Source: Myxococcota bacterium (GTDB lineage Bacteria > Myxococcota_A > UBA796 > GCA-2862545). Taken from it: a stretch of DNA of 64,000 bases. The stretch's first letter is position 1, and every line of letters starts with the position of its first letter. The stretch spans positions 11,829 through 75,828 of the forward strand of contig JBCCQY010000025.1 in the NCBI GenBank assembly GCA_039208735.1, written 5' to 3'. The translations under genes and the position numbers were made by a program. A model generated the notes under the pieces. It was not told the origin of the DNA and ran no database searches. It saw only the letters and a program-made list of their open reading frames with translations. Below, piece after piece: positions 11,772 through 49,851 of the stretch.

Positions 11772-12317
11772 TCAGTCCTTGGCAGGGCGCAAGATTTGTG
11801 TGGGCGTGACGACAAGATCGACGCGCTGGTCACGGACATCGTGGGGAACGTCGTCGACGATCGCTTCATCCAGCGCAAGGCCGATGCTGAACACCTTGTT
11901 CGCGGCCAGGTAGCGGTCGTAGAACCCTCCGCCCCACCCAAGACGCCGACCCGATCCATCGAAGGCCAAGCCTGGCACCAACACGGCGTCGACCGGAATG
12001 GCAGGCCCCGACCCGGTCGGAATGCCGAACGCCCCCTCGACACGGGGTCCCGCGTCTTCGACCATAACCATCGTGTTGGCCTCGATTCTGGGGATGGCCC
12101 AACGAACGTGGGGCAGGGCCTCACGAGCGGGAGACGTCGGGATCTCACGGCGGATGGCCAGGTAGGTGGCCACGGTAGATGCCGTGGCCAAAGGGGGCAG
12201 CGTCGCAAGGTTTTCGGCAATGCTTCGGGCGGCCGCGCGGAGGATGTCTCGTGTGACCGCGGCTCGCATGCGGCGCATGCGACGTCGAAACGCAGTCTTC
12301 TGGGCGACAAGGTCCAT
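11772..12317 (-). CDS. ygfA: 5-formyltetrahydrofolate cyclo-ligase
   Basis: VPGLAFD.SG.RLGWGGGFYDRYL, HD.RVD.VVT. Confidence 0.92.
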   Translation of the reverse strand: MDLVAQKTAFRRRMRRMRAAVTRDILRAAARSIAENLATLPPLATASTVATYLAIRREIPTSPAREALPHVRWAIPRIEANTMVMVEDAGPRVEGAFGIPTGSGPAIPVDAVLVPGLAFDGSGRRLGWGGGFYDRYLAANKVFSIGLALDEAIVDDVPHDVRDQRVDLVVTPTQILRPAKD

Positions 12318-21612: not shown

Positions 21613-24060
21613 TTAGCCGCCCCGCAACCCCACACCGATGCGAATGATGTCGGCCAGAACGCCGCTTGCGGTGACCGCTCCCCCCGCTCCGGCTCCACTG
21701 ACGACCAATGGATGGGTCGCATACCGCTCGGTGTAGAACGCGACCATCGACTGGCTCGATGACAAGGCGAAGGCAGGATGACCTTGCCCCACGGTCGTCA
21801 CCCCAACCTTCAGCACGGGGGTGGCCGCAGGATCGATGACGGCGAGGTAACGGAGGACTTCGCCGCGCCCCCGCGCGGCGGAGACCCGGTCTGCGAGCCC
21901 TTGTCGGGCATCTTTGAGCGCCTCGAGAAACGCCTCAACTTCCGGGATGTCGAGCAGGGTGGCGTCGACGAGAGGTTCGATTTCGACTTGGTCCATTTCG
22001 AGGTCGAGCCCAAGACGTCGGGCCAGGATGAGCGCCTTGCGCGCAGCATCGACGCCTCCGAGGTCCTCTTGGGGGCGAGGTTCGGTAAATCCCCGTTCCC
22101 GGGCATCTGCGACCGCTTGATCGACCGGGACGCCCTTCGAAAGCTCGTCGCATAGATAGCCGAGCGTCCCCGACAACGAACCGACGATGCGATTGACGAC
22201 ATCGCCAGTCTGGATCAGCGTATCGAGGGTGGAGAGCACAGGGAGGGCCGCGCCCACGGTGGTTTCGTGTTGGTACGATCGGTGGGCGCGTCTGGCGGCA
22301 TCGCGGAGTGCCGCGGCCTCCTCGCCTGCGATGGTCAGCGGCTTCTTATTGGCGGCCACCACGTGGATGCCCCGCGCGAAGGCTTCGCGGTACAGCGCTT
22401 CCATCCCCGCTGCGGCGGTGCAGTCGACAAGGATGGGAACCGGCAACCGGGCCAATTGATCGAGCACATCCGAGGTCACGGGACCGTGGGGTCCAAAGGC
22501 CGTCTCCGCCTGTTGGGACCAGGTATCGGCGTGAAGTCCCTCGGCGTCGAAGGCTAGCTTAGCGCTCGTAGCTACGCCCACGAGCTGGGGGTCGATGCGC
22601 AAAGACGTCCGTAGGGCATGCCGTTGGTCACTGATTTGGGTGAGCAGCTGCGATCCGACGACCCCCGTGCCGAGCAACACGATGGACAGGGGGGTGTGGG
22701 TCAGGTGGAACGCAGCGTGAACGGTCCGTACCGCCGTCACCAGGTCGGCATGATCGACCACGCAGGAGATCGACCGAGCGGTGGCGGATTGACCGATCGT
22801 GTGGACGTTCACGCCGATCTGGCCGAGTGCCGCGAACATGCGGCCGGCCACATTTGGGGTGCGGCCCATCGCTTCTGCGACCAGCGTCAAGAGCGCGACT
22901 GGGGTTCGCACGCGAATCGATTCGAGCGCTTCGCGGGAAAGCTCGGTGGCGAACACCCGCTCGAGTTCGTCTTTCACCGCGTGGGCTTGGGCTTGGGGTA
23001 CGACGAGCGACAGCGCTTGGCCGTGGGCGGAGTGGGTGACCAGCCACACCTGTTCGGTGACGGTCTGCAATGCCCGGTGGACCCGTTCCCCGAACTCCGG
23101 CGAGTGGTGCCGGTCTCGGAGTCGAAGGTCGAGCAGGGCCAAGTCGGTGACCGACGTGACCGAGGTGGCGCGGGTCTCGTCGTCGCTGCCGTGTTGGTCC
23201 ACGGTCGTGCCAGGGTCCGCGGGGTCGAACGTGTTGCGGACTACCATGGGAATGCGCGACGCGAGCAGGGGGACCAGGGTGCGAGGATGCAGCACGCGCG
23301 CGCCAAAGGTCGCAAGCTCGAGGGCTTCTCCGTAGGTCATCCGCTCGAGGGTTCGCGCGTCAGAGACGATGGCCGGGTCGGCCGTCATGACCCCCGCCAC
23401 GTCCGACCAGATCTGAAGCTCCTTGGCGGAAAGGGCGTTGGCCACGAGGGCGGCCGTGTAATCCGAGCCGCCTCGACCAAGGGTAGTGGTACGACCGTCG
23501 CTCGTCGATCCCACGAACCCCATGATGACGGGCACCGCATTACCCAGTGGGATCAGCGTCTCTCGAAGCGCCGCATAGGACGCCACTTCGTCGACATGGG
23601 CTTGGCCGAAGCGGGCATCGGTGCGGCACCAACGCCTCGAATCGATGGGCTGGGCGGATCCGCCTGCCGCAATGAGGCGTGCGGTGACCACCTCGACCGC
23701 CAACATCTCTCCATACGCGAGGACCGAGTCCCGCGTGGCGTCGGAAGCCTCACCAAGCAGGGCCACGCCGACGAGGAGCTGCCGAATCTCGTCGACGCGG
23801 GCCGTGAGCGAGCCCGTCAGATCGTCGGACTGCGCGCATTGCATCGCGGTTTCGAGGACCTGGTCGAGCTGGGCAAACGCCCCTTGTCGATCGCGGCGCT
23901 CGGCGCGGTCTAAGGCTTCGGCGAGTCGGTCGGTGGTGCTTCCCAGGGCCGAGACGACCACGGCAGGCTGCTCCTCGGCCATCACCAGGGCGCACACGCG
24001 GGTGAGGTTTTCAGGAGAGCCGATCGACGTGCCTCCGAACTTCAAGACGGTCCAGGTCAC
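21613..24060 (-). CDS. thrA: Bifunctional aspartate kinase/homoserine dehydrogenase (ThrA/MetL type)
   Basis: KFGGTS, TTLGRGGSDYTA, DVAGVMTADP, ACT region, GTGVVG, ETTVGAALP, GFTEP.P..DL.G.D.ARK, GAGAGG.VTA; GTG start overlaps metX stop. Confidence 0.93.
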   Translation of the reverse strand: MTWTVLKFGGTSIGSPENLTRVCALVMAEEQPAVVVSALGSTTDRLAEALDRAERRDRQGAFAQLDQVLETAMQCAQSDDLTGSLTARVDEIRQLLVGVALLGEASDATRDSVLAYGEMLAVEVVTARLIAAGGSAQPIDSRRWCRTDARFGQAHVDEVASYAALRETLIPLGNAVPVIMGFVGSTSDGRTTTLGRGGSDYTAALVANALSAKELQIWSDVAGVMTADPAIVSDARTLERMTYGEALELATFGARVLHPRTLVPLLASRIPMVVRNTFDPADPGTTVDQHGSDDETRATSVTSVTDLALLDLRLRDRHHSPEFGERVHRALQTVTEQVWLVTHSAHGQALSLVVPQAQAHAVKDELERVFATELSREALESIRVRTPVALLTLVAEAMGRTPNVAGRMFAALGQIGVNVHTIGQSATARSISCVVDHADLVTAVRTVHAAFHLTHTPLSIVLLGTGVVGSQLLTQISDQRHALRTSLRIDPQLVGVATSAKLAFDAEGLHADTWSQQAETAFGPHGPVTSDVLDQLARLPVPILVDCTAAAGMEALYREAFARGIHVVAANKKPLTIAGEEAAALRDAARRAHRSYQHETTVGAALPVLSTLDTLIQTGDVVNRIVGSLSGTLGYLCDELSKGVPVDQAVADARERGFTEPRPQEDLGGVDAARKALILARRLGLDLEMDQVEIEPLVDATLLDIPEVEAFLEALKDARQGLADRVSAARGRGEVLRYLAVIDPAATPVLKVGVTTVGQGHPAFALSSSQSMVAFYTERYATHPLVVSGAGAGGAVTASGVLADIIRIGVGLRGG

Positions 24061-25202
24061 GAATCGATCTCCAGGAGGGTGCCGAGAAGCGTCCCCGGCA
24101 TGAGGAAGGCGTCGTGGCCATGCGGGCTTGACAGCTCTCGATAGCTGCCGCCAGGCACGGATTCGCACAACGCACGAAGCAAATGAGGGTGAAACAGCTC
24201 GTCGGAGTGGATGCCTACGCCCCGGACATCGTGGAGCCGGGCGCGTCCCCACTCCCCGTCGGTCGACCAGGATTCGTGGTCATCTCGTGTGGGGCGTGTT
24301 TCGAGATCGTGGTGGTCCATCGCATCCAGCATCGACACGTAGGAGGCAGGATCAAACCTTGAAACGAGCTTTGCGCCGTGGTGCTGCAGGTAGGTTTGCA
24401 TGGCATAAGCACCAAAGGGGTGGGTGCCGCGAACCGTTCGCCCTTGCCGCTCTTCGAGCCCTTGCTCACTGCGGTACGAGAGGTGGGCAAGGGCCCGAGC
24501 GAGAGGCAACCCGGCCACGGGGTCCGTGAGTACGGCTTGCCGACCCACGTGATTGAAGCCCAGGATCCAAGGTGTACTACGAGGGCCACACGCCACCGCG
24601 TCGACCGCTTCGAATCGATCGGGCGCCAGCACTTGCATGCAAAGGGCGAGGTTGCCGCCGATCGAGCCGCCTACCACGCGTTCGACGCGTTTGACGCCCA
24701 GTCCATCGAGCGCCAACAGGGTGACCCGGGCTTGGTCCCAGGCCGTGAGGGGAGCGGGGCGCCAGCTTGGGTTCGGTGGGAGGTTGTTGAGGTCTGGCGG
24801 CTCGGGAAGGTCAGACCAGCGCGGAAACGCTGCGTCCGCCGGTCCGTAGGACCCGTAGCAGGACCCGAGGTGATTCAGGCCGATTAGTCGCGTTTTTGTT
24901 GGGTCGTAGGGACCATCTGGCCCGATGAGGAACGACCACCATCCATCGGGCTCGCCGGCTTGTGCATCGCCCGTCAATGCGTGCATGAACAAGACCGTGG
25001 GCACATCTGCCTCGAGCCGCGGCGGGGGGCTTGCCCAAAGCGTTTCAAGCGCCGCCGCATCTCTTCGAATCGGGCCTGGGTCGATGTCGATGGGGGACAA
25101 ACCTTCCAGGCCCGGACCTGCCGCCCAACCGCGCACGTGGAGCCCTGGCAAACGGAGTCCGCATTGCAGTGTCAGTGGCGGTAGCGGAAGGTCGAACTGC
25201 AC
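24057..25202 (-). CDS. metX: Homoserine O-acetyltransferase (MetX family)
   Basis: HALTGD, GWW..IGP, N.LGSCYGS.GP, GGSIGG nucleophile, D.LF, HGHDAFL. Confidence 0.88.
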   Translation of the reverse strand: MQFDLPLPPLTLQCGLRLPGLHVRGWAAGPGLEGLSPIDIDPGPIRRDAAALETLWASPPPRLEADVPTVLFMHALTGDAQAGEPDGWWSFLIGPDGPYDPTKTRLIGLNHLGSCYGSYGPADAAFPRWSDLPEPPDLNNLPPNPSWRPAPLTAWDQARVTLLALDGLGVKRVERVVGGSIGGNLALCMQVLAPDRFEAVDAVACGPRSTPWILGFNHVGRQAVLTDPVAGLPLARALAHLSYRSEQGLEERQGRTVRGTHPFGAYAMQTYLQHHGAKLVSRFDPASYVSMLDAMDHHDLETRPTRDDHESWSTDGEWGRARLHDVRGVGIHSDELFHPHLLRALCESVPGGSYRELSSPHGHDAFLMPGTLLGTLLEIDS

Positions 25203-25204
25203 GA

Positions 25205-26621
<1,417 letters not shown>

Positions 26622-26705
26622 CTACGACATACAGCAACACCAACAGACGGCGCAGCAGGCAATGGGCCCTGCGCTCGGACGATGGTGTGGGTGGGTTGTC
26701 GGCAT
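26622..26705 (-). CDS. Cys-rich leader peptide, 27 aa (MPTTHPHHRPSAGPIACCAVCWCCCMS)
   Basis: Hand translation ATG 26705 to TAG 26622; six Cys codons in nine, then Met; co-oriented with and 142 nt upstream of metY. Confidence 0.8.
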   Translation of the reverse strand: MPTTHPHHRPSAGPIACCAVCWCCCMS

Positions 26706-26900
26706 CTTCTCGACCTTCCGCGTTCTGTGGAGCGACGTCAAGCGCGTCCGTTTCACAGGATGTGTGTCTTCCTGCTGGCGCCAGCGTTATTCGCGGATCC
26801 AAACCGATGACCACCGTGGCATTGGCCGCGCGCGGGGTCGGGCTGCGCGTGCCTAAAATCTACGTGTGTGGTGCCGATGGTCGAGGGCGAGGAGACGCCC

Positions 26901-35555: not shown

Positions 35556-35583
35556 GCGTCGCCCCACTTTCGGAGGGCTTTCC

Positions 35584-48600: not shown

Positions 48601-49851
48601 ATGCCGGTCTATGAGTACAAGGCGCTGGACGCCGCTGGAAAGTCTGTCTCGAGTGTCATCGATGCGGATACGGCCAAGGTGGCGCGCACCCGGTTGCGCA
48701 AACAAGGCCTTTTTCCTACCGAGATCCGCGAACAGGCCGGCAAGAGTACCCGTCAGGGTGAATCCATCCTCGACATGCAGATCGATGTCGAGAAGTACTT
48801 CCAGTTCATCACGGCTCGCGACATTTCGACCATGACCCAGCAGCTCTCGACGCTGGTGGGAGCCCACGTGCCCATGGCCGAGGCGCTGTCGGCCTTGGTC
48901 GACCAGACCGAAAAGCAGAAGCTCAAGGTCGTGCTTTCGAAGATCAAGGAACGGGTCAACGAAGGGTCGACGCTTGCCGACGCGATGGCCCAGCATCCGC
49001 GGGTGTTCGACGACCTGTTCGTGCAGATGATTCGGGCGGGCGAGAAGTCGGGGGCGTTGTCGGAGGTGCTCCACCGCCTCGCGACGTACGCCGATGGCCA
49101 GGTGAAGCTTCAGGGCAAGATCATCTCGGCCGTGGCCTACCCCATTTTGCTCGGTCTGATGGGTACGGGCATGCTGGCGGGCATCTTTCTGTTCGTCATT
49201 CCGCGCGTGCGGACCATGTTCGACAGCATGCCTGGCGGCGAAGAGAACCTGCCGTTCATCTCTAAGGCGGTGTTCTTCTTTGGGGATGCGCTGACCAGCT
49301 GGACGGGCTTGCTTGTGCCTGTGTTTTTGGTCGCGACGTTCCTCGTATGGCGACAGTGGGTGCGTACCGAAAATGGTCGCGCCACCTGGGACCGTTGGCG
49401 TTTGAAGTGGCCGTTGCTCGGCAAGATGGCGCGTTTGGTTTCGGTAAGTCGCTTCTGTCGCACCATGTCGACGTTGCTCGTGTCGGGCGTGCCCATCGTT
49501 AGTGCGCTCAAGATCACCGAAGCAGTCGTGGGCAACGTGGTCATTGGCGAAGCGGTCGTACGGGCGACCGAGAGCATTCAGGAAGGTCAGTCGATCGCGG
49601 TGCCTCTGCGCCAGTCGGGTGAGTTTCCGCCTCTTGTGACGCACATGATCGGCATCGGTGAGCGGACCGGCGAACTCGAACGCATGCTCACTGTGGTCGC
49701 CGATTCCTACGACGATCAAGTCGATGCAACGATCACCGCGCTGACCTCGCTGCTGGCGCCGTTGATGATCTTTGCCGTCGGCGGGGTGGTCTTTTTGGTC
49801 GCGCTGGGGCTCCTGCTGCCCCTGCAGAACATGATGTCGGCGATGCGCTGA
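48601..49851 (+). CDS. gspF: Type II secretion inner-membrane protein F
   Basis: MPVYEYKA, EG..LADAM..HP.VF, AGE.SG.L, GERTGELE. Confidence 0.95.
   Translation: MPVYEYKALDAAGKSVSSVIDADTAKVARTRLRKQGLFPTEIREQAGKSTRQGESILDMQIDVEKYFQFITARDISTMTQQLSTLVGAHVPMAEALSALVDQTEKQKLKVVLSKIKERVNEGSTLADAMAQHPRVFDDLFVQMIRAGEKSGALSEVLHRLATYADGQVKLQGKIISAVAYPILLGLMGTGMLAGIFLFVIPRVRTMFDSMPGGEENLPFISKAVFFFGDALTSWTGLLVPVFLVATFLVWRQWVRTENGRATWDRWRLKWPLLGKMARLVSVSRFCRTMSTLLVSGVPIVSALKITEAVVGNVVIGEAVVRATESIQEGQSIAVPLRQSGEFPPLVTHMIGIGERTGELERMLTVVADSYDDQVDATITALTSLLAPLMIFAVGGVVFLVALGLLLPLQNMMSAMR

Follow-up and report, generated by a model that had tools for sequence, protein, structure and literature searches.

Leaderless short open reading frames (sORFs) with polycysteine tracts act as attenuators in mycobacteria, where the text of the study describing them groups them as a 'Cys ribulon' (Canestrari et al., bioRxiv 10.1101/834739), and the system is extended in M. 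tuberculosis in the texts of PMC13096801 and PMC13236596. Ribosome-stalling control of this kind has so far been tested in mycobacteria only, and for cysteine only. The Streptomyces lividans leader metL is, as described in the text of PMC8079986, leaderless, 29 codons long and Cys/Met-rich at its end; it precedes the importer metNIQ and was annotated from RNA-seq. Leader peptides ahead of actinobacterial cys and cbs genes were predicted by comparison from their Cys codons, with Rho-dependent termination proposed; upstream of actinobacterial methionine operons the same report saw no conserved structures (PMC1262725). In Rhodobacterales, uORFC-8-2 before cysS is a Cys-codon leader predicted by comparison, with an intrinsic terminator (text of PMC8632094).

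Methionine genes have been described under SAM/SAH riboswitches or protein regulators in PMC4239095, whose text contains neither 'leader peptide' nor 'attenuat', and the available text of PMC2965389 adds nothing on Met or Cys leaders. The literature searched, mostly open-access papers in their main text, held no leader peptide before metY or in Myxococcota. In the trp, his and thr attenuators a ribosome moving past a run of cognate codons opens the helix behind it, and the thrA leader of Pasteurellales holds Met codons.

The DNA analysed here (the window, 64,000 nucleotides in all) carries on its minus strand a metY-metX-thrA operon preceded by a poly-Cys leader:

25205..26479, minus strand: metY, O-acetylhomoserine sulfhydrylase (TIGR01326, 652 bits, cut-off 495)
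24057..25202, minus strand: metX-like homoserine O-acyltransferase (TIGR01392, E 9.6e-58, under cut-off)
21613..24060, minus strand: thrA, bifunctional aspartate kinase/homoserine dehydrogenase (NF006959, 731.5 bits, cut-off 726)
26485..26490, minus strand: metY Shine-Dalgarno (SD) sequence GAGGAG, from the sequence
26622..26705, minus strand: leader ORF of 27 codons, translation MPTTHPHHRPSAGPIACCAVCWCCCMS*, with Cys-run homologues in G006, G007, G018, G057, G061 and G068
26631..26657, minus strand: Cys run, six Cys in nine codons, putative tRNA-Cys sensor, from sequence and rarity in the genome
26628..26630, minus strand: Met codon right behind the Cys run, putative last sensing codon (Cys-Met in seven of seven leaders)

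The three genes are tightly packed, with a 2-nt gap between metY and metX and a thrA start that overlaps the metX stop (GTGA), and a metX-like gene lies behind metY in eight loci of the class. MetY would put sulfide into homocysteine. The genome also encodes MetH, a cystathionine beta-synthase (CBS) above cut-off and a second CBS-like gene beside a cystathionine lyase-like gene, so the operon can probably feed both Met and Cys; its cysE-like gene and cysK suggest that Cys need not come via this operon. No cysD was found by TIGR02039 in this genome (93% complete), though cysH and sulfite reductase are present, and 13 MYXO-CTERM domains above cut-off suggest a Myxococcota-like lineage. A SAM-I riboswitch lies ahead of a second methionine operon, composed of an unnamed long frame and then metB (G000:C23:58120-58239, minus strand, G000 being the window's own genome), so that the two methionine routes appear to use different sensors.

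A conserved poly-cysteine leader upstream of metY

Translation confirmed the 27-codon minus-strand ORF of the original prediction, in which six Cys in nine codons are followed by Met, Ser and the stop, 142 nt before the metY start (26479). The run is not a chance occurrence, as at least six Cys in nine codons were found in only 8 of 62,378 tiles of 300 nt from the same genome. A six-frame scan of this genome returned ten such places, six inside long GC3-rich frames, three in leaders (before metY, cysH and a RimK-like gene) and one unexplained, the last being a Cys-codon run on contig C165 (plus strand, near 11806) beyond any long GC3-rich frame. Upstream of cysE-cysK, metH, the CBS genes and the remaining PLP genes in this genome, no Cys/Met run exceeded four in ten codons. 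The supposed excess of TGT (three of the six Cys codons) did not hold up, since TGT makes up 28% of Cys codons in the long ORFs of the genome and the count is unremarkable (P=0.22, not significant).

Orthologues of metY (E<=1e-120) occur in 12 of 182 class genomes, own included. A Cys-run leader ending in Cys-Met precedes seven of these 12 loci (own included), against one of 12 in the antisense control; the carriers are G000, G006, G007, G018, G057 and G061, of one family, and G068, of the same order, with G018 and G057 being near-duplicates. The leaders are 25-41 codons long and hold 4-8 Cys and 1-7 internal Met (one in the window). Their N-termini are not conserved, and the Cys tract is kept in the six relatives while the rest differs, its codons varying between TGC and TGT, which is the pattern that the original prediction had proposed to look for upstream of metY orthologues. 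The leader ORF is thus real and conserved.

In a quick tree of 41 chosen proteins, the seven leader loci and G042 form one clade of eight (SH-aLRT 88), with G041, G151 and G154 (52-57%) outside it; no leader was found in G042 and G062, whose metY is 72% identical. On contig C369 of G042 (L112, L182), metY and a RimK-like gene are divergent neighbours, neither with a clear leader. Elsewhere in the phylum, 25 more metY loci, the top ones from 77 matching genomes, yielded only two frames, both marginal. Rfam riboswitch and T-box models gave no match in the window leader even at E<=10, nor in the six related leaders, using a library that does find SAM-I at locus L032 and on contig C23. The matches at E<=10 are chance hits inside metY only.

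Two elements precede the leader start:

26736..26741, minus strand: predicted -35 box TTGACG, 17 nt from the -10 box
26713..26718, minus strand: GAAGGT, a weak -10 box by prediction, 7 nt upstream of the leader ATG

Genome-wide, 331 of 585,365 ATG/GTG codons have a -35 box matching at least five of six positions together with NANNNT 6-7 nt upstream. An SD-like GGAAGG (26714-26719) overlaps the predicted -10 box and gives an alternative reading of it, and a stricter sigma-70 promoter scan found no site. In the relatives, TANNNT stands 6-7 nt before the leader ATG/GTG in six of six, against 0.37% of ATG/GTG triplets in the window's genome, whose own box is imperfect. This position of the -10 box in all six relatives suggests that the leader mRNAs are probably leaderless.

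Predicted folds behind the leader

Four elements were predicted between the leader and metY:

26590..26622, minus strand: stem A (5' arm 26616-26622, 3' arm 26590-26596), from covariation and RNAalifold
26564..26609, minus strand: stem B, predicted alternative fold (5' arm 26603-26609, within the stem A loop; 3' arm 26564-26570), from masked folds
26569..26586, minus strand: C-rich, G-poor linker, a possible Rho loading site or plain unpaired spacer, from C-over-G skew
26515..26556, minus strand: downstream hairpin (26548-26556 with 26515-26522) with no U tract, from folding; no terminator-like site

Stem A is recovered by RNAalifold and is paired in 34 of 34 cells across five distinct rows, against 17-66% for slid partners. 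In two of its pairs both bases have changed; 13 of 500 shuffles scored as high, and the few related rows make this modest evidence. In G061, which was kept out of the alignment because its loop is long, the stem has 11 bp. At the stem A end, CAGCCGYAAC (window 26584-26593, minus strand) is common to G000, G006 and G068 beyond the paired part. When the ribosome was represented by masking, stem A stayed with the ribosome in the Cys run and stem B appeared once it was past, clearly so in G000, G018 and G057; stem B was also found in G007, was weaker or different in G006 and G068, and was not seen in G061. Six leaders rank within the highest 0.5-15% for C-over-G skew when compared with 1,890 upstream windows.

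In seven of seven leaders stem A starts 8 nt downstream from the first base of the run's last Met codon, whether the stop comes early or late (counted in G006 from the second of two Met codons). Ribosome positions are numbered from the P-site codon. With Met in the A site, stem A would start at +12, which is the mRNA tunnel entrance of the ribosome according to the text of PMC6380275.

As judged from sequence, an attenuator of some output and specificity is very likely here, and we consider it likely that it is a leaderless, ribosome-stalling one that switches metY-metX-thrA on when charged tRNA-Cys, and probably charged tRNA-Met, is scarce. Transcription would begin at the leader ATG. As long as the ribosome has not gone beyond the Met codon, it would leave stem A intact, because at that codon the first base of the stem would be only at the tunnel entrance; once Met is decoded, the ribosome is predicted to open stem A, so that stem B could form.

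Sister leaders, output and the methionine codon

Two further poly-Cys leaders are present in the same genome, before cysH-sulfite reductase-cysG and before a RimK-like ATP-grasp gene:

G000:C78, stop near 35578, minus strand: cysH-sir-cysG leader, seven Cys in ten codons (L120, L146), from the sequence
G000:C5, stop near 48805, minus strand: RimK-like leader, seven consecutive Cys codons (L119, L176), from the sequence

Such sister leaders were found at 21 of 30 cysH and 15 of 30 RimK-like loci (the top 30 each of 70 and 91 matching class genomes), with antisense controls of 0 and 2; two RimK-like leaders were later dropped, L182 as doubtful and L183 for its contig edge. The three poly-Cys leaders are best read as a class-wide 'Cys ribulon'. 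The leader before the RimK-like gene suggests a cysteine-linked ligase, which would tie this uncharacterised ATP-grasp family to cysteine metabolism, perhaps to thiol-peptide synthesis. TANNNT precedes the start in only 9 of 34 sister leaders. By eye, a hairpin with a U tract is visible in about 8 of the 34 and one covering the SD in about 10, and the C78 cysH leader is predicted to alternate between two folds, a helix paired with the leader and an SD-covering hairpin. In a crude test for a three-segment switch, 22 of the 34 were positive, against a shuffled mean of 17.3 and maximum of 24, which is not significant.

The least certain step at metY is the OFF state, which may be an early end of transcription through Rho or through pausing on the C-rich leader, a step that we would place a little short of an even chance. 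The C-rich leader, in a genome that encodes Rho (NF006886 above cut-off), weakly favours Rho- or pause-dependent termination over hiding of the metY ribosome-binding site. The linker is unpaired in the stalled fold, which is not an obvious block to Rho and which the termination model leaves unexplained. A translational output, as at mycobacterial Ms5788, in which successive refolding steps that depend on where the ribosome stands would occlude the metY ribosome-binding site, is somewhat unlikely. It would agree with the lack of an intrinsic terminator (no U-tract terminator in seven of seven metY leaders), with a C-rich linker that can pair with the SD once stem A is open, and with an opening cost that rises in the two sister leaders of the genome, in one from 14.3 to 19.2 kcal/mol, where the choice of start is doubtful, and in the other from 10.9 to 17.4 kcal/mol. 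Against it, equilibrium folding of the window's leader gave no rise at metY in the OFF state (7.6 kcal/mol stalled, 6.4 kcal/mol with the ribosome at the stop), the seven metY leaders showed no consistent direction, contrary to an SD-occlusion switch of the Ms5788A type, and only 19 of 29 sister leaders go the expected way.

The reading of Met draws on the comparison with the sister leaders. Met occurs in the run of seven of seven metY leaders, a set chosen on Cys plus Met, and of 6 of 36 sister leaders (p 5e-5). When the metY leaders are selected by the same Cys rule as the sisters, the count is six of six (p 1.8e-4); because the seven metY leaders have a single origin, both p values overstate the difference. 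Of 34 sister leaders, 18 have a best helix with the region beyond the stop that begins 8-9 nt downstream of the last Cys, and 23 have one that begins 7-10 nt downstream of it. The same spacing is thus counted from Met at metY and from the last Cys in the sisters, which would make Met the last sensing position at metY and is the best argument from sequence that Met is read. The fixed Cys-Met pair and the placement of the hairpin support the tentative suggestion of tRNA-Met sensing made originally, and we regard Met sensing by the metY leader as moderately probable.

Outside the class, a GTDB-wide scan returned distant metY only (45-65%) among the matches listed, and 17 of 80 such loci had a Cys/Met frame, against 6 in the antisense control. 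MAMCMCM-like frames precede metY at 10 of 13 Acidobacteriota loci (counted from titles), which belong to a separate metY clade; at these frame loci (L040, L048, L052, L069, L072, L079, L084, L093, L100, L109), several frames end in RMR and several have a promoter-like box just before the start. The metY locus L032 carries a SAM-I riboswitch. At three Chloroflexota loci (L033, L071, L081), the 500 nt upstream of metY hold frames with a brief Met-rich stretch and, behind it, a PRSAEDGV-like tail common to all three; Rfam gave no match. A metagenome scan with a MetX alignment as query gave a metY-like match at 50 of 80 loci, 11 of them without its 5' end, and flagged 6 of 39; one of the six was a copy of the G061 leader, and the metY leader clade gained no further member. 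Among the metagenome leaders upstream of metY, L209 has separate Met-rich and Cys-rich blocks and L225 alternates Met and Cys.

An attenuator that senses Cys alone, with the Met codon inherited and neutral and Met/SAM control exerted through the SAM-I riboswitch on the metB operon (contig C23), is unlikely. The window leader does hold six Cys to one Met, a single ancestral origin could explain the shared Met, the Myxococcota-labelled metY leader L043 has Cys only, and 6 of 36 sister leaders hold a Met; but stem A is placed relative to Met as the sister helices are to the last Cys, relatives have up to seven Met codons, and Met-rich frames recur in Acidobacteriota. A more far-reaching form of the main reading, a Cys and Met sensor with Met as the last codon before the +12 helix, forming one arm of a leader-peptide sulfur regulon (metY, cysH-sir-cysG, RimK-like) across an uncultured Myxococcota-like class, with counterparts at metY in Acidobacteriota and an output that relies on neither an intrinsic terminator nor occlusion of the SD, is somewhat less likely than not.

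Very improbable is a metabolite-binding RNA in which stems A and B form a SAM-type pseudoknot and the UGY repeats are structural elements, not codons. The 5' arm of stem B inside the stem A loop gives an H-type topology, and metY is a SAM-II/SAM-V target elsewhere (texts of PMC4239095 and PMC6061858), but Rfam gave no match, the Cys codons lie in frame between start and stop with TGC and TGT varied, and loop and linker sequences are poorly conserved. Least probable of all is a small Cys-rich protein, metal-binding peptide or modified-peptide precursor, which the high Cys content might suggest but which is at odds with lengths of 25-41 aa, with the lack of anything conserved outside Cys/Met, and with a position always 5' of the same genes, the genes scanned around the leader being metabolic apart from one response regulator and one sensor kinase.

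Comparison with known systems

The conserved Cys-run leaders in relatives support the original prediction of a Cys-codon attenuator for a homocysteine/methionine operon, and the analysis extends it with a likely leaderless start, predicted switchable hairpins and sister leaders across the class. Consecutive Cys codons lie 5' of a sulfur operon, the Cys tract is conserved while the rest varies, and three such loci occur in one genome. If true, the reading of Met codons ahead of biosynthesis genes would be an added specificity, for which the literature searched gave only the Streptomyces metL annotation. The class moreover holds both Cys-only and Cys plus Met leaders that share one helix spacing and of which only some have an intrinsic terminator, which makes specificity and output directly testable by single-codon swaps.

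Like the actinobacterial cys/cbs leaders and uORFC-8-2, as the texts of PMC1262725 and PMC8632094 present them, the metY leaders are Cys-codon leaders predicted by comparison; those two are Cys only and precede other genes. Like metL in the text of PMC8079986, the window leader is a Cys/Met-rich and here probably leaderless frame before methionine genes, with hairpins and no typical intrinsic terminator; unlike it, it precedes biosynthesis genes and not the importer metNIQ. With the trp, his and thr attenuators the metY leaders would share a cognate codon run followed by a helix opened by the ribosome, as predicted here, whereas they have neither a U-tract terminator nor an SD-led leader.

The closest resemblance is to the mycobacterial Cys ribulon as set out in the text of 10.1101/834739, with which the locus shares a likely leaderless short ORF with its Cys tract near the end, several independent sulfur-metabolism operons per genome and, at metY, no intrinsic terminator. 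It differs in phylum, in its target metY-metX-thrA, which is not named in the running text of that study, and in the fixed Met behind the Cys run of the metY leaders. The predicted switch helix of the metY leaders lies just past the putative sensing codons, whereas at Ms5788A, in the same text, it is the Cys codons that form the duplex with the SD region; an SD-hiding duplex opened by stalling is shown for Ms5788A only. The metY leader would thus be a Cys-ribulon-like attenuator, probably with added Met sensing.
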